A stretch of DNA of 40,909 nt, filler included, from Candidatus Nanoarchaeia archaeon (GTDB taxonomy: Archaea; Nanobdellota; Nanobdellia; Woesearchaeales; DATDTY01), in NCBI GenBank assembly GCA_035290625.1. It is 3 parts of 3 records of this genome, joined end to end, with 100 filler letters (N's around TTAATTAATTAA, not from the genome) between each part and the next. Parts side by side here need not be neighbours in the genome. Positions count along the whole stretch, not along the records: positions 32,936 to 40,909 come from DATDTY010000084.1; 2 more parts are not named here. One strand, given 5' to 3'. Numbering within the stretch: the stretch's first letter is position 1; every line of letters begins with the position of its first letter. Shown piece by piece: positions 1,878 to 40,909 of this stretch. The notes beneath the pieces are model-generated. The model did not search any database. It was not told where the DNA came from and saw only the letters and a list, made by a program, of their open reading frames with translations. A program made the position numbers and the translations under genes.

Positions 1878-3239
1878 TTAAGGGTTATGGTGGCGTATCT
1901 TTTCCAGCAGAAAGCTTGTGAGCCTGTCCGCATCATCCTTCTTCAACCCATCAAGATGCAGGAGTTCCTGCGAAGATTTGCCGATTGTAGAGAAATGGAC
2001 ATCCCAGAGGCCAAACAGCTTGTCATAGATATCCTCATCAACAAATACGTTCTGGATTTTGCGATAGGGGGTCGCAGATTCTACAGTGGTGAAGATCCCC
2101 CTCTTAAAGATGAAAAGATCCTGCGTTGAGGCATAGGACATGCTTTGGATGAAAAAGAAATCCCTTGCTGCGTGGATGAGAAAGGCAAAAGGAGGGAGCA
2201 CAAGAAAGCTGAGAAGAAAAACAAGAAGCACAGGAACGCCGATTCCGATGGCGAAGATCCTGACAAGGATTACTCCGATGACAAAAAGGGAGGTAAGGCC
2301 GACAAGCAGCCTTGCCGTTGCCCCCAATCCGGTCTTCATTGGCCGCCATACTGAAATATTTACTTCAGCCAGATCCTTGAAATGAGATTCAGACAGCCCC
2401 ATATTCCTGATGAGTGTGCTTCGCAGGAGTTTTGCATCAGCAGCAGAAAGGTAGGGGATGGCGTTCAGGATTACGTCCTTCCGCTCTTTGCCGACAACCC
2501 CCAGCCTGAGGTCGCCTGTTTCGATGATGAGGTCTGCAAGCCCAGTCAGCCGCCTCCAGATGCTCCTCCTGATGTGGATATCCTGGATCTTGTGATACGG
2601 AATATGCACACGAGCCTTTGAAAAGAGAGAGTAGTCCAGCTCAAGGTTGTTTGGCAGGACATAAAAAGAGAAGGCGATCTTGAACAGCAGGAGTTTAGAG
2701 ACGAATCCTATAAAAAAGAAAAGATAGAGGAGGGAAAGAACGCCATTGTTGAGAACGAAAGGCAGCCCGGCAGACCATGCGAGGATCAGCGCACCACACT
2801 GGAAGAGTGCGTGGACTCTATACGTCTGCCCTTTTTTCTGCTCGGTTTTTGCGTGTTGCAGGACTGTTATCACCTCATTGGCGTCGTTGATGGAAAGGGC
2901 TGAAAGCCTGCCAGGCTGCTGGGAAATGGTCTTGACCTCAATGGAGGTAAGCCCAAGAAGGCGCTCCAGAAAAGACTGGGTGCGATGAGTGTCCTGGATC
3001 TTGTCGTACAGAAAAAGAGCTCTTGACTTGGCGAAGATTCCGGATTGAATGAACAGCCCATCATCCCTCAGATCATAATGCTCGAAGAAAAGCCGTAGGG
3101 AATTCATTGAAAATGCTGCAACAAAAAAGAGTATGAACAGGAAGTCCTCAGTAAAGCCGGTGGTGAGCCCGATGAGGAGGGCGATGATGATCCCCGGAGC
3201 AAGGCTGAGCAGCGCCTGCGGTTTGTAGATGCGGCTCAT
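1878..3239 (-). CDS. Membrane protein with three bacterial PH (bPH_2) domains, YdbT-like
   Basis: Three repeats of a TM pair plus a Y-x-KIQ(D/N) ... (L/T)FG(L) motif (LYDKIQD, PYHKIQD, PYRKIQN). Confidence 0.8.
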   Translation of the reverse strand: MSRIYKPQALLSLAPGIIIALLIGLTTGFTEDFLFILFFVAAFSMNSLRLFFEHYDLRDDGLFIQSGIFAKSRALFLYDKIQDTHRTQSFLERLLGLTSIEVKTISQQPGRLSALSINDANEVITVLQHAKTEQKKGQTYRVHALFQCGALILAWSAGLPFVLNNGVLSLLYLFFFIGFVSKLLLFKIAFSFYVLPNNLELDYSLFSKARVHIPYHKIQDIHIRRSIWRRLTGLADLIIETGDLRLGVVGKERKDVILNAIPYLSAADAKLLRSTLIRNMGLSESHFKDLAEVNISVWRPMKTGLGATARLLVGLTSLFVIGVILVRIFAIGIGVPVLLVFLLSFLVLPPFAFLIHAARDFFFIQSMSYASTQDLFIFKRGIFTTVESATPYRKIQNVFVDEDIYDKLFGLWDVHFSTIGKSSQELLHLDGLKKDDADRLTSFLLEKIRHHNP

Positions 3240-3721
3240 TCAGATTTCCCGCGTTTCGGTATTCTTGAAAGGATTTTGCTTCGCAGCTTTTCAGCGTTGC
3301 TATAGTTCAGGCCGTCAATATGCGCATTTTCTCCAGACATAGGCGTAGCAGTCGAGACATGGACATCCCATAAGCCAAAGATCCTGTCAAGGAGATCCTG
3401 ATCTGAATAAACATCCTGGAGTTTGCTGTAGGGAAGGATAGTCTCCCTTCGTGTTACAGCCCCTTTTTTGATGACAATAAAATTCCTTTCAATGTCATAA
3501 TAATACGTTTCGTAGTAAACCCGTTCATACCAATAGATGAGAAACGGCGCTATGAAATACAACGCATCAACAATGACCAGGAAATATTTTAATTGTTGCC
3601 AAAAGAAGAGATGGAGCCAGAAAGGAGCCAGGAAAAACGATGCCATAAGAGACAAGGCTCCAAGGAGCGTTTTCTTGACGATCTTAACCCGTTCCAGCGG
3701 AAGCTCTTCGACTGTTTTCAT
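3236..3721 (-). CDS. Membrane protein with single bPH_2 domain, YdbS-like
   Basis: Two TM helices then PYSKLQDVYSDQDLLDRIFGLWDVHVSTA; ATGA overlap with the downstream gene. Confidence 0.8.
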   Translation of the reverse strand: MKTVEELPLERVKIVKKTLLGALSLMASFFLAPFWLHLFFWQQLKYFLVIVDALYFIAPFLIYWYERVYYETYYYDIERNFIVIKKGAVTRRETILPYSKLQDVYSDQDLLDRIFGLWDVHVSTATPMSGENAHIDGLNYSNAEKLRSKILSRIPKRGKSE

Positions 3722-3751
3722 AAAGAATCTGTTGAAACAGTGATATATAAA

Positions 3752-3851
3752 NNNNNNNNNNNNNNNNNNNNNNNNNNNNNNNNNNNNNNNNNNNNTTAAT
3801 TAATTAANNNNNNNNNNNNNNNNNNNNNNNNNNNNNNNNNNNNNNNNNNNN
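3752..3851. other. Artificial contig linker (N run with TTAATTAATTAA)
   Basis: 100-nt N block containing a six-frame stop spacer. Confidence 0.97.
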
Positions 3852-4057: not shown

Positions 4058-5833
4058 ATGGTGAAAAGAATATCAATCTTTGGAATTCTATTTCTGCTGT
4101 TAGGGCCTTCTCTTGCCTTTGCTAATTTCCCTCCAGAATTAACAGAAGGGCACGCAGAACCGCCTGTCGCTGCGCCTGGCGATCTTATTGTTTACCAAGT
4201 TACGTATATCGATGAAGATGGTGATGCTCCGGAATATGTGAGGATTATCTTTACCGGGAAGGAAGCAAGAGAGATGAGGAAGATAAGCGGAGATTATAAG
4301 ACCGGATCTGTATATGAATTCAGCTGGAAACAAGATGATAGTTTTGACTATCGCTTTGAAGCAAGCGATGGAAAAGAGACTGCTCAACTGCCTTGGTATG
4401 GCGGCACTCTGGCTCCGGTCAATATCGTTTCTGAAAAGTTGGAAAGCAACAAGATCTATTTTTTCTCCAGAGAAACTAATGAGCCGCTTTGGAGTTATGA
4501 TATTGGAAAAAACCAGGTGCAAAATGCAGTCATTTCAGATGATGGCAGCAGCATTGCAGTGAAAACAAATGATTATATCTACTTTTTTTCTAAGGATGGC
4601 GATCAGCCGTTATGGGGGCATCAATGCGAGACCGGAGAAGAAGACCCTTCTGGCGGAGGCGGTTGGGTTGATATCTCTGCTGATGGAGGCTCTATCGCTG
4701 GCGGCTGTCGTGGGTCTCTAACGCTCTTTTCAGGCGATGGAAAATCCGTATGGACAAGCAAAGACGCCAGTGGAGTCTATGCAGTTTCTATTTCAGCTGA
4801 TGGTGAATATCTTGCTATTGGAACCTCATTCAGCGACGAGCTTATCTTCTTTTCTAAGAAAAGCAATAGGCCGCTTTGGAAATACCATGCAACATCGGAT
4901 GTGCATGGCTTGTCGGTTTCTTCTGATGGCAGCCTCGTTGCTGCTGGCTCTCATTCTCCTGAAGAGATAGCCTACCTCTTTTCAAAGGAAAGCAATCTTC
5001 CCTTAACGAAACACAAGACGAGCCCCGATGCGCCAGTCTGGACTGCTGCAATGTCCAGAGATGGAAGATATAGTGTCTACGGATTGGACAGCGCAGATAC
5101 CTACACTTCAATTTTTCTTTTCTCAAATGATAAAAATACTCCTCTAAAAACCTGGACAACGGATTGGTGGGTCCGCTCTGTAGACATATCCTCTAACGGC
5201 AAATACATCGTTGCTGGAAGCGGAGACCACAATGTGTATTTAATTGACAGGGATAACGACGAGCCACTATGGAAGTTTGAGGCTGGTGAAAGGGTCGGTT
5301 CTGTTTCTATCTCGCAAGATGGGAATTACATCGCTGCGGGAAGCAAGGATAAAAAGGTCTATCTCTTCTCTAAAGAAAGCAATGTTCCGTTATGGGGTTA
5401 TAAAGCAGATTCCTGGGTCGATGCTGTTGCAGTCTCTGCCGATGGCAGCTATATTGTGGCTGGAACTGGCGCCACCAGCTATATGTCCGAAGGGCATCAT
5501 CCAATCTATAATCCGGAAAAACGTATAAAAGAAGAGATTGAAGGCAATGGGGAAGGCGTTGGAAAAAATTCTGAAGGAGAAAAAGAAACTTTTGAAAAAG
5601 AAGCAATTTGCGGGGATGGGATTTGCGAAGGTGCAGAAACTTATGAACGTTGTCCAAATGATTGTTGCGGTGAAGACTGTAACCTTGTAGAGGATATTTC
5701 TGAAGGAGAGAATGACGGCAAAAAGGGAGACACCAAACAGGCAGACATTAAACGGGAGGGCATCGAACCAAACGAAGAGAAGAGTTTATTTGAGAAGATA
5801 ATTGGGTTTTTCAGAGGACTGTTTGGAAAGTGA
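4058..5833 (+). CDS. Secreted WD40/PQQ-like beta-propeller protein with Cys-rich C-terminal repeat
   Basis: Signal peptide; repeated (V/I)S-x-DG-x-YI-x-AGS ... PLW blades; CGDGICE...CPNDC motif; amphipathic tail SLFEKIIGFFRGLFGK. Confidence 0.8.
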   Translation: MVKRISIFGILFLLLGPSLAFANFPPELTEGHAEPPVAAPGDLIVYQVTYIDEDGDAPEYVRIIFTGKEAREMRKISGDYKTGSVYEFSWKQDDSFDYRFEASDGKETAQLPWYGGTLAPVNIVSEKLESNKIYFFSRETNEPLWSYDIGKNQVQNAVISDDGSSIAVKTNDYIYFFSKDGDQPLWGHQCETGEEDPSGGGGWVDISADGGSIAGGCRGSLTLFSGDGKSVWTSKDASGVYAVSISADGEYLAIGTSFSDELIFFSKKSNRPLWKYHATSDVHGLSVSSDGSLVAAGSHSPEEIAYLFSKESNLPLTKHKTSPDAPVWTAAMSRDGRYSVYGLDSADTYTSIFLFSNDKNTPLKTWTTDWWVRSVDISSNGKYIVAGSGDHNVYLIDRDNDEPLWKFEAGERVGSVSISQDGNYIAAGSKDKKVYLFSKESNVPLWGYKADSWVDAVAVSADGSYIVAGTGATSYMSEGHHPIYNPEKRIKEEIEGNGEGVGKNSEGEKETFEKEAICGDGICEGAETYERCPNDCCGEDCNLVEDISEGENDGKKGDTKQADIKREGIEPNEEKSLFEKIIGFFRGLFGK

Positions 5834-19055: not shown

Positions 19056-20126
19056 TCAGGCAGGAGAAAAAAGAGCCTCAACAAGATCTTTCATAAACAA
19101 GGCAGCTTCTCTCCCATCAACAACGCGGTGGTCATAGCTGAGGGAAAGCGGCAGTATCTTCCGTACAACAACCTTTCCTTCCTTCACAACAGCCTCGTCC
19201 TGTATATCGCCCATACCTAAGATTGCCACTTCAGGATAATTGATGACAGGCGTGAAGTATTCTACTCCAAGATGGCCTAGGTTCGTGATTGTGAAGCTTC
19301 CTCCTTTCATGTCCATGGGATTGAGTTTCTTGCCCACCTTAGCGAAATTCTGGATCTCTTTGGCAATTGTGATGGTGTCTTTTTGGTCAGCTCCCTTGAC
19401 AACCGGAACCCTTAATCCATCTCCCTCATCAACAGCGATGCCAATATTGTAGTATTTCTTAACCCGTATCTCTCCTGCAGCTTCGTCAAGGGTTGAATTC
19501 AGCATGGGATGTTTCTTCAAAGCAGCGACAACAGCCTTCACAACATAAGGAAGATACGTCAGTTTCACATCCTCACTCTCAGCTTTCTTCTTCTCCTTTT
19601 CCCGCAAAACAGCAAGTTTTGTAACATCAGCTTGCTGCATATGCGTGACTTGAGCAGTAGTGCGGATGCTCTCAGCCATATGCTCTGCAATCGCCTTCCT
19701 GATGCCTGAAAAAGGAACCCTGTCAATGTAGCCGAACATGTCATATTTCTTCTGAACCTTGACGCCCTTGCTCTCAGCTGCCAACCCTGCCTTTCCTTCC
19801 TTTCTTGGTATGTGAATCTTCTCAGCCTTCTGCTTCTCTCCATCATCCAGGAACCCGATTACAGTACCGGCGTCCTTCTTCTCTTCGCCTGATTCCTTGA
19901 TCGTAACCATTGTCTGGCCGACTCTGATGACCCCTCCTTCTTTGACATGCAGCCTGATGATGGTTCCAGCTTTTGGGCTTGGAATTTCAACAATGGCCTT
20001 GTCTGTCTCTATCTCTCCCAGGGCCTGATCTGCATCGACAGCATCCCCCTCCTTGACCAGCCATTTGACTATCGTTCCTTCCTGTATGCCTTCTCCTACA
20101 TCCGGGAACTTGAATTCGTATGCCAT
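19056..20126 (-). CDS. pdhC: 2-oxoacid dehydrogenase E2 (dihydrolipoamide acyltransferase)
   Basis: Lipoyl domain with ETDKA; catalytic DHRVVDG; no recognisable peripheral subunit-binding domain. Confidence 0.92.
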   Translation of the reverse strand: MAYEFKFPDVGEGIQEGTIVKWLVKEGDAVDADQALGEIETDKAIVEIPSPKAGTIIRLHVKEGGVIRVGQTMVTIKESGEEKKDAGTVIGFLDDGEKQKAEKIHIPRKEGKAGLAAESKGVKVQKKYDMFGYIDRVPFSGIRKAIAEHMAESIRTTAQVTHMQQADVTKLAVLREKEKKKAESEDVKLTYLPYVVKAVVAALKKHPMLNSTLDEAAGEIRVKKYYNIGIAVDEGDGLRVPVVKGADQKDTITIAKEIQNFAKVGKKLNPMDMKGGSFTITNLGHLGVEYFTPVINYPEVAILGMGDIQDEAVVKEGKVVVRKILPLSLSYDHRVVDGREAALFMKDLVEALFSPA

Positions 20127-32022: not shown

Positions 32023-32835
32023 TTATTCTTCATGCTCCAACCCGCCAAACTCCTTTTCCATCTCCTTATTTATGGATTCCAGGCTTGATGCGTACTCCTT
32101 GACAAACTTGACGTTGGGGATCCTGTCCCTAGCTTTTACCTTCAGGATATCCTTAACAAGGCAGCCTTTCTCCAGAGACTCGTGCGCATGCTTCGCATAC
32201 AGCAAGATACTTTTCATCATCAGATATGTCTTGTTCAGGGAGCAATAGGTGTCTATCTCATGATATGCGTTCTGCTGCAGGATAATCTCCCTGATCATCC
32301 GGGCGACCTCAAGGGTTATCTGCTCCTTCTCCGGCAGCGCGTCTGATCCAACGAGCTGGACGATTTCCATGAGCTTTTCTTCGTCCTGCAGGATGGACAT
32401 GATCTGGTTGATCAGGCCTCTCCATTCCTTAGCAACATTCTCGGAATACCATGGCTCTAATGTATCCAGATAAAGGGAATAGGATGTGAGCCAGTTAATT
32501 GAAGGAAAATGGCGCCTTTGGGCAAGCTTCGCATCAAGCGCCCAAAAGGTCTTTGCAACCCTCAATGTTGACTGGGTGACAGGCTCTGAGAAGTCTCCGC
32601 CTGGCGGAGAGACTGCTCCGATAACAGTAACTGAACCCTCTGTTGCTGAGCCCTCCTTTGCGCCAAGAGGGACCGCCCGGCCTGAGCGCTCATAGAATTC
32701 TGAAAGCCTTGTTGACAAATATGCAGGATATCCTTCCTCGCCTGGCATTTCCTCCAGCCTTGAGGAGATCTCACGCATGGCTTCTGCCCATCGCGATGTT
32801 GAGTCAGCCATCAATGCAACTGAGTAGCCCATGTC
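32023..32835 (-). CDS. atpA: A/V-type ATP synthase subunit A, C-terminal part (5' end cut by contig edge)
   Basis: [36 protein letters not shown]. Confidence 0.95.
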
Positions 32836-32935
32836 NNNNNNNNNNNNNNNNNNNNNNNNNNNNNNNNNNNNNNNNNNNNTTAATTAATTAANNNNNNNNN
32901 NNNNNNNNNNNNNNNNNNNNNNNNNNNNNNNNNNN
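32836..32935. other. Artificial contig linker
   Basis: 100-nt N block with TTAATTAATTAA. Confidence 0.97.
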
Positions 32936-32993
32936 GAGCATAATCGTAGATGCATTCCCCTTTTCCCAGAGCCTCAAGATATCTCCCTTTCAT
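32936..32993 (-). CDS. N-terminus of DUF2283-like putative antitoxin (truncated by contig edge)
   Basis: MKGRYLEALGKGECIYDYA...; ATGA overlap with the upstream toxin-like gene; YDY motif. Confidence 0.5.
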
Positions 32994-33431
32994 TTTTCCA
33001 GCCGTTTTAGGTTTGGTATCGTGTCTGTGTTTATAAACGTTATTATCTCCAGCTTGTCAAGCTTCAATTCGAATATAATCCTTAAAAAACCTTCCTTTCT
33101 TCGAAAAAAGGCAGCATACCTTCCATTTTTCTGCAATCCAACTCCTTTCGGGCTCTCTCTTAAGAGTGCATGTATCAAGTCTTCTTCCTTAAATATTTTC
33201 CTCTGCGAATCGCTTAAATGATCCAGGGCGTGAGGACTTACTTTGATTCTTTCTTTATTGAAAATTCGGGGTTTAAGACGTGGGCTTTAGCCCGAATTTT
33301 CAATCCCGAAAACCGCACGATCAAAAACCCCGACATTTAGGTCGGGGATTAGTGCGGTTTTCGTTATACTTAGAGAGTATTTCATTGTATCTGTCAGTTT
33401 CAATTACCTCAATTATTTTTGTAGTGTTCAT
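32990..33431 (-). pseudogene. DUF4258/RelE-like putative toxin interrupted by a 106-bp palindromic insertion
   Basis: MNTTKIIEVIETDRYNEILSKY (33431-33366) joins NKERIKVSPHALDHL...IITF (33259-32990) in frame once the insert is removed, giving 111 aa. Confidence 0.7.
33258..33363 (-). mobile_element. Non-autonomous IS200/IS605-like palindromic element
   Basis: Two hairpins (CGAAAACCGCAC..CCCCGAC/GTCGGGG..GTGCGGTTTTCG and TTGAAAATTCGGG/CCCGAATTTTCAA); ends in TCAA on the minus strand; no TIR pair spanning it and no long TSD. Confidence 0.65.
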
Positions 33432-33502
33432 CAGGAGGCATCTCACGAGAAAGCAGTGGTAGGAAGTATTTTAATGTTTTCATGATGGAACTAACGAACA
33501 AG

Positions 33503-33575
33503 CAACCTCTTTAAACATCCCTTCATTCTCAAGCAGCAATGGACAGGAAGAGCGCGGGGGTCTTGGTAGGGGCAT
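33503..33575 (+). repeat. Cassette-boundary repeat copy 1
   Basis: CAACCTCTTTAAACATCCCTT...ATGGACAGGAAGAGCGCGGGGGTCTTGGTAGGGGCAT. Confidence 0.85.
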
Positions 33576-33813
33576 TTTGAAAGAGACTTAACTTACTTTT
33601 TGACTGTCATCTTCCACTCATCACCAAATAAGAGATGATCTGCTCTCCGTCAGAAGCATTGAAGCCTTTGAGGAAGAAGGATAGAAGGATTAGGAGGAGG
33701 ATTGGCGGTTTCACGGTCTTTTTGCAATACTCTTAAGAAATGAGATATTTAAATTCTCCCCTCCAAAAACACAAACAGAAACTATTTAAAGAGCGGTACC
33801 TTCTTGAAGAACC

Positions 33814-34026
33814 ATGAAATACCGGGTTGTGATTGAGCAGGATGAAGAAGGGATGTTTGTGGCAGAATGCCCGACATTGCCTGGCTGCCTCTCCCAGGGC
33901 AAGAGCCGCAGCGAGGCAGTGAAAAACATCCGGGATGCGATGCGCGGATACCTCATAAGCCTAAAAAAGCACAACGAGGCCATCCCTCCCTCAATTGATG
34001 AGGAAGTTGTGGAAATCCATGCCTAA
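33814..34026 (+). CDS. hicB: HicB family antitoxin
   Basis: YRVVIEQDEEGMFVAECPTLPGCLSQGKS..EA..NI.DA. Confidence 0.92.
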   Translation: MKYRVVIEQDEEGMFVAECPTLPGCLSQGKSRSEAVKNIRDAMRGYLISLKKHNEAIPPSIDEEVVEIHA

Positions 34027-34243
34027 GTTGCCAAGGCTTTCTGGAAGAGACATTGTACGGGCCGCGAGAAAGTTGGGATACGAACTGGACCATCAGACAG
34101 GAAGCCACATGATCCTGCGGCAGAACAGTGCGCCTTATCGCCGCTTGACCGTCCCCAATCATAAGGAGCTTTCAAAAGGAACATTGCGGGCTATTATCCG
34201 GCAGCTTGGTCTGGCCAGAGAGGAATTTCTTGGACTGTTGTGA
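34019..34243 (+). CDS. hicA: HicA family toxin
   Basis: MPKLPRLSGRDIV; TGSHMIL; TVPNHKELSKGTLRAI. Confidence 0.92.
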   Translation: MPKLPRLSGRDIVRAARKLGYELDHQTGSHMILRQNSAPYRRLTVPNHKELSKGTLRAIIRQLGLAREEFLGLL

Positions 34244-34310
34244 AATGCTTATGGGAAAAAACTTAAAGGTTTTTACCCGATTGATTATGGTTTTGCGGAG
34301 CTGCATCCCC

Positions 34311-34362
34311 CAACCTTTTTAGACATCCCTTGATTATGGACAGGAAGAGCGCGGGGGTCTTG
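34311..34362 (+). repeat. Cassette-boundary repeat copy 2
   Basis: CAACCTTTTTAGACATCCCTTGATTATGGACAGGAAGAGCGCGGGGGTCTTG; abuts the stop codon of the next minus-strand gene. Confidence 0.88.
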
Positions 34363-35019
34363 TTAGAATACCACTGAAGACAAATCTCCATACCCCTTTA
34401 GAAAGATTAGATTCCAGTACAGGGCAAATCTGATTAATGGCGCATCCCCATACTTGTCTTTTACTCCATAACGACCGTACTCTCGTATAAGGCTTCTTAA
34501 GACGTTTCTCGTATCATCAATAGCGGCTTTAACCCTTCTTCCTGTAACTAAAGATAGTACTGTAGTTGCATACGGCTTTATGAAGACCTTCATATTTTTA
34601 TCTTTTGAAGGTGTTGATGATCTGGTGGGATCTATCACCACCATAAACTGAGCCTCATAGCCTATATATGCATCTGCCTTGCCTTTTTTAACAGCAATCT
34701 CCCCGAGTTCCTGCGCTGAATCACAAGCCACTGCATACGTTATTGTAGAAGCCAAGAGATGGATGTTGCTCTCTTCCAAAATGATATGACCATTATGGCC
34801 CGCAATCGAATCCTTATCCCCATGGCCATGCAGAACCATCAGCCTTGGGCTGCCCTTTCGTATCGACTTTTCAAAATTCTCCTTGGTCGCTTTTGGGCCT
34901 TCGAGATTAATTATCGTATACTCTTTTCCTATCGCCCCTATTATACTTTCGGAGAAGTAGTGCATGCATGCTGTAGGAGGGTCATATCTGGGGCGCATGA
35001 ACAAGATCGTTTTAGTCAA
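34363..35019 (-). CDS. Caspase/CHAT/gingipain-fold (CHF) putative cysteine protease
   Basis: hhhHGHG and hhACDS His-Cys dyad spacing; AYIGY downstream; TTG start coupled to the upstream gene. Confidence 0.65.
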   Translation of the reverse strand: MTKTILFMRPRYDPPTACMHYFSESIIGAIGKEYTIINLEGPKATKENFEKSIRKGSPRLMVLHGHGDKDSIAGHNGHIILEESNIHLLASTITYAVACDSAQELGEIAVKKGKADAYIGYEAQFMVVIDPTRSSTPSKDKNMKVFIKPYATTVLSLVTGRRVKAAIDDTRNVLRSLIREYGRYGVKDKYGDAPLIRFALYWNLIFLKGYGDLSSVVF

Positions 35020-35221
35020 TTTCTCCCCTGCTTAAGCTCTGTATCATCCTGAACTGCACTTCCACAATCCTTTTGCCAAGTTCTGTCCTGTTTCTTACCT
35101 CTTCCAGCATCTCCGCAACCGTAATCGGCTTGCCCATGAGCAATACCTTTGCATTCCTGTTTAGCGTCTCCAGCCGGGCTATAACAAGATCCTCTATCTC
35201 CTTGCTGCTATTGTTGCTCAT
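35012..35221 (-). CDS. Small hypothetical protein (69 aa)
   Basis: LVIARLE...EEVRNRTELGKRIV; overlaps both neighbours. Confidence 0.8.
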   Translation of the reverse strand: MSNNSSKEIEDLVIARLETLNRNAKVLLMGKPITVAEMLEEVRNRTELGKRIVEVQFRMIQSLSRGEID

Positions 35222-35403
35222 AGTATCTCCAATTGTTTCATCTTTTTTAAAATTTTTTCGCCTAATTTTGTTTTTCCTTCTACTTCATCGTATGCCCTGT
35301 TCCATGTGTATGGCCTTCCTTCTATAAGAACAATGATCTGGCTTCTTTCATCATCAGGCAGATTAGAATACGCTTTTTTAAATGCTGGCATTAAGTCCTT
35401 CAT
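35218..35403 (-). CDS. Small hypothetical protein (61 aa), apparent paralog of the adjacent gene
   Basis: SD GAGGAG; MKDLMPAF...DEVEGKTKLGEKIL. Confidence 0.8.
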   Translation of the reverse strand: MKDLMPAFKKAYSNLPDDERSQIIVLIEGRPYTWNRAYDEVEGKTKLGEKILKKMKQLEIL

Positions 35404-35529
35404 TTTCTCCTCTTTATCTGCATCACATGCCATGTTTATATATCTTTCTCTGACCCGTCGGCATATGCGGGGTTTATTAAACGCACGATTTTGGACAGCG
35501 GATTTGGGTTTTTGCTTGGGAGGGATGTT

Positions 35530-35668
35530 ATGGCTGGAGAATTGGGGGCAGGCACCAATGTTAAGGTTTGCGCCATCAACCTTTTTAGACATCCCTTGAT
35601 TATGGACAGGAAGAGCACGGGGTCTTGTTAGGAGCATTTATCATTCTGTCAGCACTGGCTATCTTATT
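35530..35668 (+). repeat. Cassette-boundary repeat copy 3 (longest signal-peptide-like extension)
   Basis: ATGGCTGGAGAA..GGGGCAGG..AAGGTTTGC..CAACCTTTTTAGACATCCCTTGATTATGGACAGGAAGAGCACGGGGTCTTGTTAGGAGCATTT... Confidence 0.85.
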
Positions 35669-35675
35669 GGCGCCT

Positions 35676-36647
35676 TCATAAATAATGATAATAAACCTCA
35701 AAGAATTTACGATGGGTTTGTTTAGCCTTCTCAAGAGCAAACCTCATAAGCACCACATATGTTCCTAAATCAGCAGCCTGAAGCGCCTTGAGATACCTTT
35801 CCCTCACTGTTTTTCTTATGATGATGGGAAAATACCCTCTTTTGATCAATATATAATTGAGCAGCATTCGCCCGATTCTGCCATTCCCATCTGCGAAGGG
35901 GTGGATCTTCTCAAATCGATGGTGGAATTTAAATGCTAATTCAAGCGGATACATTGCATCCTTATTGTCCTGATACCACGTTATCAGCATCTTCATCTCT
36001 TTTTCGACGTGCTCGGGTTTGGTTAATTCAAGATCTCTGCCAAGCAGGATATTGGGCACTTTTTTATAACCAACCCGATTATCAATATTCTTCATGATTT
36101 TTTTGTGCAGATTGATGATAGCTGATTCAGTCAGCTCCCTCTTCGAATCAAAGAGATCCGAAAACACCATATAGGAATTCTTTGCATCATAGACCTCTCT
36201 CAGGTCAGCAGAGCTCTCTACCTTATCCTCAAAGACGATCTCTGAGAAGTTTTTTAATGTGAGCGAGTTGCCTTCAAGAGCGTTTGATTCGAATACAAAG
36301 TTAGCGACGAACCTCTTTTTAACGTCCATCCAATCCTTGCTGTGGAGAGATTTCCTGATTTCGTGGTATTTAATGTTCATTTCCTCAATCTTCTCTACTT
36401 CAGAAAGATCGAGAGGATATTCAAGATGAGCGTATCTCTTTCGTATATCCTTCATAACCAAAGCATGGGTTTTCCTGTCCACATCAAGCGCAAAATCCTT
36501 CATGCCTTTTTTTATCTGGGCATCGGAGACCTCACCTTTCCTGCCGAGGTACTTGCTTATCTTAAACACTGTGTTTTTTATTCGCAGGGTTTTATTTACG
36601 TAGAGGTAGGGTATCCCCTTCAGCTTCCTTTCCTGAACAAAGACCAT
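35676..36647 (-). CDS. Fic family protein (adenylyltransferase)
   Basis: Canonical HPFADGNGRIGR; SNALEGN inhibitory-helix motif. Confidence 0.93.
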   Translation of the reverse strand: MVFVQERKLKGIPYLYVNKTLRIKNTVFKISKYLGRKGEVSDAQIKKGMKDFALDVDRKTHALVMKDIRKRYAHLEYPLDLSEVEKIEEMNIKYHEIRKSLHSKDWMDVKKRFVANFVFESNALEGNSLTLKNFSEIVFEDKVESSADLREVYDAKNSYMVFSDLFDSKRELTESAIINLHKKIMKNIDNRVGYKKVPNILLGRDLELTKPEHVEKEMKMLITWYQDNKDAMYPLELAFKFHHRFEKIHPFADGNGRIGRMLLNYILIKRGYFPIIIRKTVRERYLKALQAADLGTYVVLMRFALEKAKQTHRKFFEVYYHYL

Positions 36648-36784
36648 GGCGCTGGTTACACCTACATATATTTAAATCTTTCTATTTGTGTAGGTGTATC
36701 CTCACAAACGGGTATTTTGGAGAAGACGGCAGCAGGATTTTCTGCATGTAAGGGATGCGGGCGGAATTGGGAGCAGGGAGCTGG

Positions 36785-36891
36785 ATGGCTGGAGAACGGG
36801 GCAGGATGATCCTCAATCAAGGTTTGCAACAACCTTTTTAGACATCCCTTGATTCTCAAGGGGCAATGACAAAGAGTATGAGGGGGTTCTT
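36785..36891 (+). repeat. Cassette-boundary repeat copy 4
   Basis: GGGGCAGGATGATCCTCAATCAAGGTTTGCAACAACCTTTTTAGACATCCCTTGATTCTCAAG...GGGGGTTCTT. Confidence 0.85.
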
Positions 36892-36922
36892 ATATAAATC
36901 TTCGGAATCACTGTTTCTGAAG

Positions 36923-37126
36923 CTATCCTCTCCTGCCCCAATTAAGCCTGTTCCATAGCCTTTCGTGGAGGTAGTAGAAGATGAGCTTTGCAATAACCTC
37001 AAAAGCCCCTACTCCCAAGGATATCCTGACATTTCCTGTAAATGTAAACACTATTGTGATGGTAATCAGTGTTGCCAATACTCTCCAGCTGATTGTCTTA
37101 GCCAGGGTTCGCTTGTGGTGGTCCAT
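36923..37126 (-). CDS. DUF2061 family small membrane protein
   Basis: RTLAKTISWR...YYLHERLW motif. Confidence 0.85.
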   Translation of the reverse strand: MDHHKRTLAKTISWRVLATLITITIVFTFTGNVRISLGVGAFEVIAKLIFYYLHERLWNRLNWGRRG

Positions 37127-37564
37127 TTAATAGATCTCCTTTGGATTGATCCTTTTTAATACCACCTTCTGCTCGTCTTGTTTGAAGGTTATATGGAAAT
37201 GCTCAAAAAACCCATGCCTGCCAAGAAGCAACGGAACGTCGTTATCATTATCCTGGAGGATAAGGGCCGGGACATCCAGAGAATACCGCTCACGATTTCC
37301 TTCAAGCATAAAGCGCAGTCTGGAACGCTTCACCTTAACTTTTCCGCCAATGCCTCCTGTCTCGGTTGATGCTGCATTTTCTTTCATCCCAAGCAAATCT
37401 GCCAAATCCCTTGGAACAACAGTAGTGTCTGCCCCAGAATCAACAAGGCCCACTACTTTCATTACCTGCTCAAACTTATTTCTTACAATAACCGGGATAA
37501 ATGGCGCATGCCGCAATGTCCCATCTTTTCTTGGAACATGGATGTACCTGTATATAATCGGCAT
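37127..37564 (-). CDS. Retropepsin-like aspartyl protease
   Basis: GLVDSGADTT; GIGG flap; LLGR..FF. Confidence 0.85.
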   Translation of the reverse strand: MPIIYRYIHVPRKDGTLRHAPFIPVIVRNKFEQVMKVVGLVDSGADTTVVPRDLADLLGMKENAASTETGGIGGKVKVKRSRLRFMLEGNRERYSLDVPALILQDNDNDVPLLLGRHGFFEHFHITFKQDEQKVVLKRINPKEIY

Positions 37565-37565
37565 T

Positions 37566-37754
37566 TTAGAAAATCAACGTGTCTTTTTTTGGGAGCTTAG
37601 CAATGGTCGGGGCAGGGCGGCATTGTTTTATCTCCTCTTCCAGCTTAGCCAGGCTCTTGTCATGTGCTACTATCTTATCCCTGCATATCACTATCCACTC
37701 TCCTACATAGGCTGATAAATCCATTCCCTTTGGAAAAACATCCTGGGCTGCCAT
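37566..37754 (-). CDS. DUF5678-like small protein
   Basis: YVGEWIVIC..KIVAH motif, directly upstream of the aspartyl protease. Confidence 0.75.
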   Translation of the reverse strand: MAAQDVFPKGMDLSAYVGEWIVICRDKIVAHDKSLAKLEEEIKQCRPAPTIAKLPKKDTLIF

Positions 37755-37812
37755 AGGTGTTGTATGTGCGTATGTGCTTATAAACCTTTCGCGTTGCCTG
37801 TGTTTTCACAAA

Positions 37813-37935
37813 ACTGATTCTGGACAGGATGGCAGTTGAGGGGAGAGAAAGGGGCAGGATGATCCTCAATCAATGCTGGCAACAGCCTTTTTAGACTTCC
37901 CTTGATGAACCAGGACGGGAGGGGCGTGGGGGTCT
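37813..37935 (+). repeat. Cassette-boundary repeat copy 5
   Basis: ACTGATTCTGG..GGCAGTTGAGGGGAGAGAAAGGGGCAGGATGATCCTCAATCAA..CCTTTTTAGACTTCCCTTGAT..GGAGGGGCGTGGGGGTCT. Confidence 0.85.
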
Positions 37936-37985
37936 ATCCAAATTTCAGTAAATCTTAAATATACTCCTATCCCTGACTGGGTACT

Positions 37986-38494
37986 ATGTTAAGGGTACTC
38001 TTTGACACAAACATTTATGGATTCCTATTAAAGGAAAAAGATTCTCAAGACATAGAAAAGAAAATAATTCAAGACAAGGAGTTCATTGTTTATGGGTATA
38101 GCCCAATAAGAAAAGAGATCCGGGCAATCCCCCGAGTCTCAAAATTAAGCAAAAAGGCAAGGATTAGGATCCTGGGATTGTATGATTCTATCACAGGCAA
38201 TCATTTCCTTAAGGATTCAATACAGATCACCCATTTGGCCAGGAAGTATTATGATTGCTACCGGAATTTTGGAGGCATTGGGATACAAGTATCAGGATAG
38301 ACTTTATGATTGTTGCGTGCGCAAGCCTTAACAAGCTGGATATTGTCTATTCTGCTGACAATAAAACCCTATTGAGCAAGCAGGCTTTAAAGGCGTATAA
38401 ACATATCCATATCAAAGAAAGCTTAAAGCTGCCAACCTTCTTTACTTACGAAGATCTCCTTGTAAGATTCAGAAGCCTAAGTCCTTCAGCTTGA
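37986..38494 (+). pseudogene. PIN-domain (VapC-like) protein, frameshifted near 38270-38285
   Basis: VLFDTNIY...RKE in one frame; IDFMIVACA...VYSADN in another overlapping frame. Confidence 0.75.
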
Positions 38495-38579
38495 AGACTT
38501 TTCTTGTAGAAGCCTCTATAAACTTATTGATGTCTCTAATAAACTCCGCGTCTTTCCCAGGTTCTTTGATACTTTTCAC
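38469..38579 (-). CDS. Putative 36-aa small protein convergent with the PIN gene
   Basis: GTG start, SD AGGAG and TATA-like TTTAAATA upstream; MKSIKEPGKDAEFIRDINKFIEASTRKVFKLKDLGF. Confidence 0.5.
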   Translation of the reverse strand: MKSIKEPGKDAEFIRDINKFIEASTRKVFKLKDLGF

Positions 38580-38646
38580 GCATTATGCAATACTCCTGGC
38601 TTATTTAAACTTTTCGAGTGAGTTCCTGGCAGGGAGTTTTTACCAG

Positions 38647-38797
38647 ACTGATTCTGGGCAAACGATGGCGGGATTCTCCGGTTATGGCAGTTGAGGGGAG
38701 AGAAAGGGGCAGGATGATCCTCAATCAAGGTTTGCAACAACCTTTTTAAACATCCCTTGATTAGCTGCGTATATGGACAGGAGGGGCGTGGGGGTCT
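38647..38797 (+). repeat. Cassette-boundary repeat copy 6
   Basis: GGCAGTTGAGGGGAGAGAAAGGGGCAGGATGATCCTCAATCAAGGTTTGCAACAACCTTTTTAAACATCCCTTGATT..ATGGACAGGAGGGGCGTGGGGGTCT; abuts the stop of the wHTH gene. Confidence 0.88.
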
Positions 38798-39054
38798 TAC
38801 TTAATCTGCTTTAGAGTATCCTCCCCATTCTTATGAACCCTGTACAATTTACCAATCTTATCTTCGGGGTTGAGGCAGAGGATAAGCTTTTGATCCGTTA
38901 GTTCCTTGAGTGTTGCAGAAGCTTGGGACATAGCAATCTTTAATGATCCCTTCACATCATTTGCAGAAACAGGGGTTGAGGATTTGGATACCAGTATCAA
39001 TACGCTTTTTCGTCTTCCGCCCCTCTTTAGCCAGGCAACCAAGCTCCAATCCAT
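38797..39054 (-). CDS. Winged helix-turn-helix regulator (ArsR/MarR-like)
   Basis: SQASATLKEL...LILCLNPEDKIGKLY...GE pattern; divergent from the downstream block. Confidence 0.8.
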   Translation of the reverse strand: MDWSLVAWLKRGGRRKSVLILVSKSSTPVSANDVKGSLKIAMSQASATLKELTDQKLILCLNPEDKIGKLYRVHKNGEDTLKQIK

Positions 39055-39146
39055 ACTCTTGTTTTTGTTAACTGAATATTTAAATTAAGTTAAGAAAACA
39101 TTAAGAAAAAGAAAACCTTAAATAGGGGCAGGGCTTCGCTCATGGC

Positions 39147-39440
39147 ATGAGAAAATGCATTCATTGCAAGCGGGGATACAAAGAATTCATGATGAGCAAT
39201 TATAATCTTGGACTTTGCAGGAAATGCTTTGATGCTTTTGAAGATAGGATTGACAGAGATGACTCCATTGACGAAGTGACTCATAAAATAACCTGCCCAA
39301 AATGCAGACATACTTATGACTTTATCGTTGATGAACAATGCAAGACAAAAAACTGCAATGTCTGGTTTTTCTGGGATGATCTGGACTGCAGGGTGATTGC
39401 ACGATGGGTTACACTTGGAAAAGCTGCCTCAAAGAAGTGA
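39147..39440 (+). CDS. Cys-rich putative zinc-finger protein
   Basis: CIHC, CRKC, CPKC and CKTKNC motifs. Confidence 0.65.
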   Translation: MRKCIHCKRGYKEFMMSNYNLGLCRKCFDAFEDRIDRDDSIDEVTHKITCPKCRHTYDFIVDEQCKTKNCNVWFFWDDLDCRVIARWVTLGKAASKK

Positions 39441-39474
39441 CGTAGCTCCTGAAACCAGAAGAAACAAGGCGCAT

Positions 39475-40116
39475 ATGAAATACCCAAAGATTAATACCTT
39501 ATGGAAACGGGATGCAAACAATGCCATTATTGAAGGAGAGTATTCCTGTCCCGAATTTGGAAACATACAGAGATGGCACATAACTGAAAAGATTGACGGG
39601 ACCAATATCAGGATTGTTTTCACTCGGGAGACGTCAACATTAGAATTCAAGGGAAGGACTGATGATGCAGAGATACCAAAAATATTACTGTCCAGATTAA
39701 AAGACATCTTCACAGAAAGGAAAATTTTGAATCAATTCTCGGATGCGCATACTGTTATATTATACGGGGAAGGGTATGGCAACAAAATCCAACGAGCTGG
39801 TAAACATTACAGGGATGATCGCTCGTTTATTCTTTTTGATGCCCGGATTGACGGTTGGTGGCTGGAGCAGCATAATGCGGCAGATATTGCGCATAAGCTA
39901 TGTGTAGACTATGTGCCTTATCTGGGCATCGCTTCAATAGAAGGGGCAGTTCAGAGACTAAAAGAACAGCAGAAAAGCATGATATCGAATACTCTCATCG
40001 CAGAAGGGATCGTTGCGAGAAGCCATCCTTTAATGCTCTTTAGGGATGGAACTCCTATTATGTGGAAGTTGAAAGTGAAGGATTATGAAAAAACCAAAAA
40101 AGTAATGTTTCAATGA
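39475..40116 (+). CDS. ATP-dependent RNA ligase-like nucleotidyltransferase (Rnl2-like, phage-type)
   Basis: Motif I TEKIDGTN; III LYGEGYG; IIIa FILFD; IV EGIV; V KLK. Confidence 0.85.
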   Translation: MKYPKINTLWKRDANNAIIEGEYSCPEFGNIQRWHITEKIDGTNIRIVFTRETSTLEFKGRTDDAEIPKILLSRLKDIFTERKILNQFSDAHTVILYGEGYGNKIQRAGKHYRDDRSFILFDARIDGWWLEQHNAADIAHKLCVDYVPYLGIASIEGAVQRLKEQQKSMISNTLIAEGIVARSHPLMLFRDGTPIMWKLKVKDYEKTKKVMFQ

Positions 40117-40430
40117 AAAAAACAATATCGCTAACACTTTTGAAACGAGCAGGATACAAAGAATACGAGGATGGTCTGGGCAATAAAACTTTTCAAAAGA
40201 AATTTGTTGATAAGAAGGGTACGAAGTACTATATCCATTGCTCTTACTCTTCCCTTGTTGGAAGGATTTTCTGGGAGTTTTCAATGAACTTAGAGATAGA
40301 ACAAGGAGCTGTGGAATTCACAACAATCCAATGGTTCAACGAGGGCTCAGGAAGGACAATCAAGGATGTTGAGGATTACTTTGGATGGCTGTGGAAAGCT
40401 CATAATAAACCGTATCACGAATTGTATTGA
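40113..40430 (+). CDS. Hypothetical protein (phage-like)
   Basis: 105-aa ORF with ATGA overlap to the ligase gene. Confidence 0.7.
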   Translation: MKKTISLTLLKRAGYKEYEDGLGNKTFQKKFVDKKGTKYYIHCSYSSLVGRIFWEFSMNLEIEQGAVEFTTIQWFNEGSGRTIKDVEDYFGWLWKAHNKPYHELY

Positions 40431-40476
40431 TGGGAAGAGTTCTCTGAAGACGACGGGGAAGGGACGTAGTAGAAGA

Positions 40477-40909
40477 TCACTTATCTTCTTTTCTCAGAAT
40501 AACCACCAACCCAGCAAAAACAGCCAATGAGATGATGTACGACACCAGATAGGTGTTGAATCTCCGGTATCTCAACTCAGCATCACCTTTATACTCATAA
40601 ACATTCGTTGTCCCTTCTAAGGGCTCTTGCTTTCCAAGCTTCCATCCTTTGTTATAGGCATCTGTGAAGATAACATACTTCTTTTCAGGCTTGCTTATTG
40701 TGTAGCTTATAGGGCTGTTTTTCTTGTAACTGAGGGTATACAATGTTTCTAAATCATCGCTTTGATAGAATTTGTTTATTTTATATTTGTTTTTCAATAA
40801 AATCAGAGTATCGGTTTCATTAGCCAATTCTAAATCCGTATCATTTAACAGCCATTCATGCCTTATATAGTCAGCTTCTTTTGCCAGGATAATGTACTTT
40901 ACATTTATC
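40477..40909 (-). CDS. C-terminus of membrane-anchored protein (YfhO-like tail), continues beyond the window
   Basis: Open frame to the window edge; VIFTDAYNKGW motif followed by a C-terminal TM helix. Confidence 0.55.
   Translation of the reverse strand, partial: INVKYIILAKEADYIRHEWLLNDTDLELANETDTLILLKNKYKINKFYQSDDLETLYTLSYKKNSPISYTISKPEKKYVIFTDAYNKGWKLGKQEPLEGTTNVYEYKGDAELRYRRFNTYLVSYIISLAVFAGLVVILRKEDK

Follow-up and report, generated by a model that had tools for sequence, protein, structure and literature searches.

A row of six small toxin-antitoxin (TA) and defence modules, punctuated by co-oriented copies of a short repeated unit, lies towards the right end of the stretch of DNA analysed here (hereafter the window), which is 40,909 nucleotides (nt) long and comes from Candidatus Nanoarchaeia archaeon (GCA_035290625.1; Woesearchaeales). 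The source genome, G000, is a bin of 84 contigs and 1.37 Mb and the sole member of its taxonomic family. The window joins three G000 contigs, C82 (1-3751), C83 (3852-32835) and C84 (32936-40909), through runs of N around a TTAATTAATTAA string at 3752-3851 and 32836-32935. Genes that lie left of 32835 do not adjoin the array in the genome, and an apparent 55-nt palindrome at 32834-32937 was discarded as an artificial joint between contigs. C84 is a full contig of 7,974 bp with a GC content of 0.421 (0.459 for the genome), and contains the entire array as it appears in the window.

The unit shared by all copies is about 50-61 bp long and consists of a 24-nt core (79-100% identical among copies), a linker of 3, 6, 13 or 14 nt and a 23-nt G-rich box (the G-box). 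With up to 3 mismatches, the core CAACCTTTTTAGACATCCCTTGAT is found six times in the window, at 33503, 34311, 35577, 36830, 37883 and 38738, always on the + strand, against no match in 100 shuffles; the six same-orientation copies listed in an earlier annotation made from the sequence alone (the sequence-only reading) are thereby confirmed. The series extends to a seventh copy, r0, at L008:8534-8614, 1,097 bp upstream of r1 and outside C84; L008 is a metagenome contig of 14,918 bp that is 100% identical to C84 across 5,833 bp, and r0 is also found on a further contig, L007. A search with a profile of the seven copies returns exactly seven on L008 (E 1e-16 to 2e-23) and none beyond these, be it in the left flank (8.5 kb), in the right extension or elsewhere in the genome (best E 0.21), and a scan of the whole genome with the core pattern gives six forward matches, all on C84, and none in the reversed control. 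Scatter across the genome independent of cargo, which the sequence-only reading had named among the findings that would speak against it, is thus not what we see, the unit being confined to the array locus. Seven co-oriented units accompany six modules, with one unit at each operon boundary and none within a module, so that each interval holds one self-contained TA or defence module, as had been proposed. Moreover, two cargo stop codons do abut the repeat: the tail TGTTAG of r2 provides the stop codon (34363-34365) of a 218-aa gene, and the stop codon of an 85-aa gene (38797-38799) overlaps the last G-box base of r6. The units and cassettes of the window are, from left to right:

32936-33502, - strand: right part of cassette 1, with the 5' end of a DUF2283 gene (cut by the contig start), a 62-aa partner open reading frame (ORF) at 32990-33178 and an insert resembling a miniature inverted-repeat transposable element (MITE)
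33503-33563, + strand: unit r1, with core 33503-33526 (3 mismatches, TTTAAAC), 14-nt linker, G-box 33541-33563 and tail TGGTAGGGGCATTT; promoter weight-matrix score 13.3
33814-34243, + strand: cassette 2, with hicB 33814-34026 and hicA 33995-34243; own TATA box at 33785
34269-34366, + strand: unit r2, with A module 34269-34290 (GTTTTTACC and a short hairpin), core 34311-34334, 3-nt linker, G-box 34338-34360 and tail TGTTAG
34363-35427, - strand: cassette 3, an operon of a 218-aa caspase-like (C25/CHAT-like) gene 34363-35019, a 69-aa ORF 35012-35221 and an ORF of ~64-69 aa at 35218-~35412
35526-35640, + strand: unit r3, with a diverged B module, core 35577-35600, 3-nt linker, G-box with a 1-nt deletion and tail TGTTAGGAGCATTT
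35676-36701, - strand: cassette 4, with a Fic gene 35676-36647; own TATA box at 36676
36779-36889, + strand: unit r4, with B module GGGGCAGGATGATCCTC, a 12-6-12 imperfect palindrome, core 36830-36853, 13-nt linker and a diverged G-box 36867-36889
36923-37790, - strand: cassette 5, an operon of DUF2061 36923-37126, aspartyl protease 37127-37564 and DUF5678 37566-37754; own TATA box at 37784
37802-37935, + strand: unit r5, with A module, B module, core 37883-37906 (2 mismatches), 6-nt linker and type-2 G-box 37913-37935
37986-38494, + strand: cassette 6, a PIN-like gene frameshifted into frames of 104 aa and 79 aa (37986-38300 and 38255-38494)
38636-38797, + strand: unit r6, the longest, with A module, 23-nt insert, B module, core 38738-38761 (TTTAAAC), 13-nt linker and type-2 G-box 38775-38797; promoter weight-matrix score 12.5
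38797-39054, - strand: right boundary gene for a putative winged-helix protein of 85 aa; phrog_31115 match, E 4.7e-5

Outside the core the copies are less uniform. The G-box pattern GGACRGGARGRGCRYGGGGKTCT is exact in four of the six window copies and has 2 mismatches in the copy at 35577; in the copy at 36830 it was not found within 3 mismatches. Over all seven copies, the G-box GGACRGGARGRGCGYGGGGGTCT is exact in r0, r1, r2, r5 and r6, has lost 1 nt in r3 and has diverged in r4, and in r0-r3 it is followed by the tail TGKTAGGRGCATTT. The right edge is common, at GGGGGTCT, except in r4 (GGGGGTTC) and r3 (one G lost). To the left of the core, a purine-rich B module is common to r0 and r3-r6, reading GGGGCAGGATGATCCTC in r4-r6, and an A module (GTTTTYACC and a short hairpin) is common to r2, r5 and r6. 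Unit similarity stops before both boundary genes, that for a 125-aa protein and that for the putative winged helix-turn-helix (wHTH) protein, and no other source of the unit was found in the genome. A coding reading was rejected for either strand: on the + strand the ORFs that start at the G-box ATG run for 9-30 codons and are unconserved, and on the - strand a proline-rich frame is open in five of the seven copies, the linker indels not being multiples of three and the genome holding no homologue. A likeness of the G-box to origin-recognition boxes was considered and dropped.

Three independent assemblies bear on the integrity of the locus. To the left, L008 extends into sequence 99.8% identical to contig C73 of G000, and C84 is part of G000 because L008 leads into C73 and because the small multi-copy element of C84 at 33254-33367 recurs on C67, C33 and C28. 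L020, the third of the assemblies, matches C84 at 100% identity over 5,322 bp and adds 3 kb rightward. As C84, L008 and L020 concur, the array is not a misassembly, another alternative that the sequence-only reading had raised. The final 15 bases of L008 (14904-14918) depart from C84 and L020 and repeat, in reverse complement, a sequence some 60 nt upstream; a variant was considered here and rejected in favour of a fold-back artefact of the contig end. The stretch is present in 20 sequencing-run entries from 11 studies, with no RNA run among the entries listed.

The left half, the linker and the right half of the unit assort independently among the copies. The G-box is 100% identical in r0, r1 and r2, yet these have three different linker types and left halves that are 17-39% alike; r5 and r6 share the type-2 G-box, and that of r4 has diverged. 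By linker, r0 goes with r5, r1 with r4 and r2 with r3, r6 being unique, whereas by the sequence to the left of the core r3, r4 and r6 fall together, as against r0 with r5. Between r5 and r6 the B module does not differ at all, and that of r4 is 78% alike. Neighbours are the most alike, r2 and r3 being 96% identical across 56 nt and r5 and r6 84% identical across 114 nt. Independent assortment of the three parts implies that at least two exchange zones are needed. This reticulate pattern, biased towards neighbours, accords with recurrent exchange among the units or with their formation at successive insertions, and less well with a crossover point that is fixed or with a mobile element that spread in one burst.

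The reading that we favour, with a probability of roughly 0.4, is that the array is a chromosomal additive island, whose units are the junctions of small, integrase-less modules that were stacked stepwise and recombined either homologously or in trans. Six small TA or defence modules, each with its own promoter, would have been stacked one after the other at a single site, and every insertion would have left a copy of the junction unit, some copies being extended leftward by A and B modules. The units would then be att-like joints, the left side of which belongs to one cassette and the right side to the next, so that the halves of the unit would assort independently. The enzyme would be encoded elsewhere, the joining being done by ordinary homologous recombination between units or by a recombinase acting in trans, and each joint would probably also fire a short + strand transcript from its core. 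The origin of the copies by insertion, the identity of the enzyme and a continuing movement of cassettes are what we infer. In the terms of the sequence-only reading, which saw here a platform for the capture and shuffling of cassettes, the architecture agrees and a comparable array exists in another genome (see below), but movement is not seen, the order being the same in every unit-bearing assembly.

Judged by its sequence, the core is promoter-like, resembling on the + strand the G000 promoters with their TFB recognition element (BRE) and TATA box. TTTAWA in G000 peaks 30 nt before ATG, lying within -32 to -28 for 200 of 1,088 long ORFs, with an A-rich BRE just upstream of the peak, and most G000 mRNAs are leaderless, as the motif sits at that distance. 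A weight matrix built from G000 promoters (random 95th and 99th percentiles of 2.5 and 7.8) scores the core higher on the + than on the - strand in seven of seven copies, with + scores of 13.3 for r1, 12.5 for r6, 6.0-7.2 for r2-r4 and 3.7 for r0 and r5. In r1, r4 and r6 the G-box opens with an ATG 30-31 nt past the T-run, which matches the leaderless geometry of the genome; of eight core look-alikes inspected in related genomes (short BLAST matches), seven sit 30-32 nt before an ATG; and the best match in the genome outside the array, C49:20014-20082, is where an epimerase-like gene has its genuine promoter and its start. These observations all count for a unit that is regulatory and nothing else, that is, a shared promoter or operator with a conserved transcript start, driving short sense or antisense RNAs at the cassette borders and having no part in the movement of genes, the copies being kept alike by a common regulator and by gene conversion. 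We consider this unlikely, though less so than the other rivals below. The linker of 3-14 nt leaves the G-box at no fixed distance from the promoter, five of the seven copies read TTTAGA, a poor TATA box, each cassette already has a stronger promoter of its own, and the frames opened by the G-box ATG are, as noted above, short and unconserved. Moreover, a purely regulatory unit leaves unexplained both the co-orientation of the copies at convergent, divergent and tandem junctions and the rule of one unit per boundary.

The sequence-only reading held that the repeat is not an attC site, and this stands. RYYYAAC...GTTRRRY pairs 35-130 nt apart number 0 on both strands of C84, against a shuffle mean of 1.7, and single-strand DNA folding of five units on both strands gives no hairpin (z from -1.22 to +1.20). 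The consensus fold of the units has one 8-bp stem and zero covarying pairs, and an Rfam scan of 32900-40909 at E up to 10 gives seven weak matches far below gathering scores, none of a recombination-site family. A genuine integron remnant, in the form of a CALIN (attC sites clustered without an integrase) such as has been reported in Archaea, would account for a co-oriented array with a site at every cassette border, for two stop codons that abut a site, and for TA and defence cargo, as reported for archaeal cassettes (Ghaly et al. 2022, PMC9668308). With motif pairs and hairpins lacking, no IntI, Xer-like proteins below the integron-integrase cut-off and an Rfam scan without a relevant match, such a remnant is highly improbable.

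Tyrosine recombinases are nevertheless encoded in the genome: G000 has two paralogous XerA-like enzymes, at C33:514-1467 and C48:86-976, which reach 216 and 177 bits with the XerA model (cut-off 220); with the integron-integrase model TIGR02249 (cut-off 265) their scores are 196 and 179 bits, each match being split into two stretches. Both genes lie within about 500 bp of contig starts, the sequence before each being unassembled, and two Xer-type enzymes are unusual for a 1.37-Mb genome. A resolvase fragment and six matches to Y1 transposases, of which three are of full length, are found in the genome as well, and none of its recombinases or transposases is linked to the array. Sites of the dif type consist, according to PMC2958812, of two 11-bp inverted arms around a 6-bp spacer. 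In r4 and r6 the core is overlapped by a palindrome, TCAATCAAGGTT-TGCAAC-AACCTTTTTAGA, which, read as 12-6-12, is complementary at 9 of 12 positions in these two copies and has arms with matching changes in r5 (GTT to GCT and AAC to AGC). Read by eye as 11-6-11, arm complementarity is 8 of 11 in r4 and r6, 7 of 11 in r5 and 4 of 11 in r0, and r3 has a 9-nt spacer; in r1 and r2 no palindrome was found by eye, the left arm being missing. Cassettes could be moved on a platform served in trans by a Xer-type tyrosine recombinase, as with the dif modules of Acinetobacter, the putative binding site being the palindrome that overlaps the core. Xer-type sites need no linked recombinase gene. The palindrome of r4 and r6, its arm-compensated version in r5 and the two XerA-like enzymes argue for such a platform, but the left arm is missing in r1 and r2 and weak in r0, neither recombinase is array-linked, and the mosaic requires at least two crossover zones where one fixed point would be expected. 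Furthermore, no second copy serves as a chromosomal dif twin in the genome, although this is in 84 contigs and dif may be unassembled. We think a Xer-served platform unlikely.

The unit might instead be a small non-autonomous mobile element, either MITE-like or made of IS200/IS605-type ends moved by a Y1/HUH transposase, which spread locally between pre-existing genes or whose cargo-carrying forms inserted head to tail. The copies are co-oriented and lack terminal inverted repeats and target-site duplications (both were sought at the edges of r5 and r6, and none was found), as in single-strand transposition, and the core ends, directly before the linker, in TTGAT, the target of ISDra2. The three full-length Y1_Tnp genes of G000 count on the same side, as do a row in the genome G448 (contig C42), which has an interval with an IS200-like Y1 transposase and a unit that carries a hairpin, and the unpublished genome G491, in which the array unit also occurs on other contigs. 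The unit of G000, however, folds without a hairpin or covarying pairs, has no copies outside the array and varies in its left boundary from copy to copy, and the IS200-like ends of this genome, with their GCCCTTTAGGGC hairpins, are unlike it; a mobile element is in our view distinctly unlikely. The IS200-like element itself is about 630 bp long, has tnpA only and carries the GCCCTTTAGGGC hairpin at both ends; it lies at C46:22004-22632, C18:1-630 and C41:4612-5096, one copy being internally deleted.

The cassettes and the unit differ in their distribution. When C84 was used as a DNA query against 400 other genomes sampled from the order, homologues of single cassettes, 65-74% identical, were found in 76, the homologous stretches of C84 being Fic and its promoter (2741-3763), hicBA (876-1308), the PIN-like gene (5050-5636), protease and DUF5678 (4191-4786) and the DUF2283 pair (6-315); the MITE-like insert, at C84 319-432, is also widespread. 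These matches end at gene or promoter borders, and none enters a unit. Conversely, BLAST of a 165-nt unit against 400 other genomes of the class gave only matches of 16-33 nt with chance-level E-values, and the G-box pattern gave 23 matches in the 400 genomes of the order against 22 in the reversed control, none with an upstream core. The core pattern in public metagenomes is found on 11 contigs, three of which have the full unit and are all of this locus, the other eight being core-only chance matches; a scan of the genome collection gave four loci, all bacterial core-only chance matches, and a scan of viral contigs gave no match.

Among 20 homologue neighbourhoods compared, one holds a clear co-oriented non-coding array, on contig C50 of G491. 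It has 11 full units across 19 kb beside ribosomal-protein genes, with cassettes for a type IIG restriction-modification enzyme, nucleotidyltransferase pairs, a STAS protein, a tetratricopeptide-repeat (TPR) protein and a homologue of the PIN-like protein, the cassette for which is 73% identical in DNA to its counterpart in the C84 array. The 31 ORFs scanned on this 33-kb contig include no recombinase. The two sets of units are unrelated in sequence, with none of 50 local alignments having z above 3. Further contigs of G491 carry copies of its unit too, three of them forming a second run, and an unpublished sister species, G552, shares three cassettes with G491 in a different order. Two of the units on G491:C50 (L128), at 19561 and 21033, carry an identical 51-nt insertion that splits their C-rich box and may be a tiny secondary insertion element. 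A weaker row of three units, on G448:C42, has two intervals, one with Fic and one with the IS200-like Y1 transposase and two unknown ORFs; this row may be IS200-related and a different thing. Other candidates were set aside: repeats in G699 are coding tails of paralogues, those at C15:28000-32000 of G000 are the conserved starts (MVNVDID...) of paralogous antitoxin-like genes, and those at C33:98900-101900 are not the same array but a different family, GCACCTGATTTGGG...GGGGTTTTCAT, near a contig end and beside copies of the MITE-like element. It is possible, if doubtful, that these arrays represent an undescribed cassette system of Woesearchaeota-type DPANN archaea, lacking attC sites and a linked integrase, built on a lineage-specific, promoter-bearing docking unit of about 50-60 bp and working by host homologous recombination or a Xer-like enzyme in trans, of which G000, G491 and possibly G448 would be independent instances. 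Small TA and defence modules would be added or exchanged at such a unit and transcribed at once.

The six modules of the C84 array are mutually unrelated, and a strong TATA box of its own precedes the first ATG of each by about 30 nt. Among the genes named by the sequence-only reading, HicB, HicA, Fic, DUF2061, aspartyl protease and DUF5678 are all recovered by Pfam on C84, which also finds an RNA ligase, and DUF2283 is recovered from the full-length gene at L008:8749-9135; on the other hand, the 62-aa partner has no match to DUF4258, and the call of wHTH for the right boundary gene finds weak matches only (E 0.08-0.12). Among PADLOC families, Fic has matches to PDC-S04 and SoFic, and the protease has one to PDC-M52B. 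The caspase fold proposed for the 218-aa protein has structural look-alikes and no family match: the predicted model resembles the Peptidase_C25 and CHAT domains (TM 0.61-0.75), a lead towards a caspase-like fold. The two three-gene groups are operons because their gene coordinates overlap or abut. As to the PIN gene, only a full-length relative of 168 aa in G491 has a PIN match, which is weak and below the cut-off (E 0.008); the array gene is split in two frames. As the split sequence is identical in the independent assemblies C84, L008 and L020, a genuine pseudogene is more probable than an error of sequencing. A 23-nt inverted repeat at 36654-36701 (GGTTACACCTACA...TGTAGGTGTATCC) brackets the Fic TATA box, with homology to relatives running through it, and looks like an operator for autoregulation. 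The MITE-like element of cassette 1 (33254-33367) is about 113 bp long, has internal inverted repeats, reaches a depth of about 114 against about 10 for its neighbours in one run, and recurs on C67, C33 and C28 and in numerous genomes across the order; its insertion is polymorphic, L007 having the locus but not the element. About 5 kb to the right of the array, at L020:1190-1522, a 110-aa helix-turn-helix protein adjoins an AAA_14/DUF4143 ATPase and is 56% identical to a protein inside the G491 array (L128:5956-6288); it is possibly an array-associated regulator or merely a common cassette.

Several findings weigh against an additive island of stacked modules. First, as the sequence-only reading had it, no recombinase is nearby: Pfam finds no integrase, resolvase or transposase among the 18 ORFs of C84 and 20 ORFs of the L008 and L020 flanks (about 20 kb), nor is there a tRNA anchor on L008 or L020. 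Second, C84, L008 and L020 run collinearly, with 100% identity in their overlaps, so that a single order and content of cassettes is seen; the comparison of cargo order that had been suggested thus yields no order variant from three assemblies of one population only, the flanking repeats being present. Third, contigs from four runs (Logan) show no unit-to-unit junction beyond those that r0 explains, although such contigs break at units and rare forms are not visible in them; backward joints at 33577 and 34366 in run contigs are accounted for by r0, and one low-depth skip of 199 nt over r4 (depth 3, side 27) is not to be relied on. Fourth, the unit is private to one population, and in G552 the cassettes shared with G491 are not separated by units, two of which are present on that contig. 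Fifth, the most conserved part of the unit looks like an ordinary promoter, and selection on transcription together with gene conversion could explain much without mobility. Finally, the repeats of integrase-less cis-mobilizable elements (CIMEs) and additive islands are the ends of an anchor gene, and the unit of the array is no such tail, whether of a tRNA, an rRNA or a flanking protein gene.

DPANN archaea have tiny genomes and yet carry many TA and defence genes, the gain and reshuffling of which are poorly understood. If the additive-island reading is true, a row of cassettes that works with neither attC nor a local integrase would extend the 'integron logic' beyond integrons and would offer a concrete, testable recombination site. 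If, instead, the unit is only a shared promoter, the locus is a co-regulated defence island, and calls for caution against reading all repeat-punctuated rows as capture platforms.

Among known systems, the array resembles CIMEs and additive islands in that att-like direct repeats flank small elements in tandem at one site with no local recombinase, homologous recombination or a trans-acting integrase being invoked there as here; it differs in that its elements are only 0.8-1.3 kb long. With integrons and CALINs, including archaeal ones (PMC9668308), it shares the delimitation of each cassette by co-oriented sites, but there is no attC pair, single-strand hairpin, IntI or attI, its cassettes have their own promoters and two of the six face the opposite way, and its site has a promoter-like core. 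The dif modules (pdif) of Acinetobacter, which XerC/XerD move, are alike in being small, often TA, and in combining short sites with a distant chromosomal Xer system; they are plasmid-borne, with 28-bp sites of the 11-6-11 form that alternate in orientation and mimic the chromosomal dif, whereas the sites of the array are all direct, three or four of the seven have the palindrome, and the genome has no dif-like twin. Closest to home, the array on G491:C50 and, more weakly, that on G448:C42 share with it the placing of co-oriented non-coding units of about 100 nt between defence and TA cassettes of mixed orientation.

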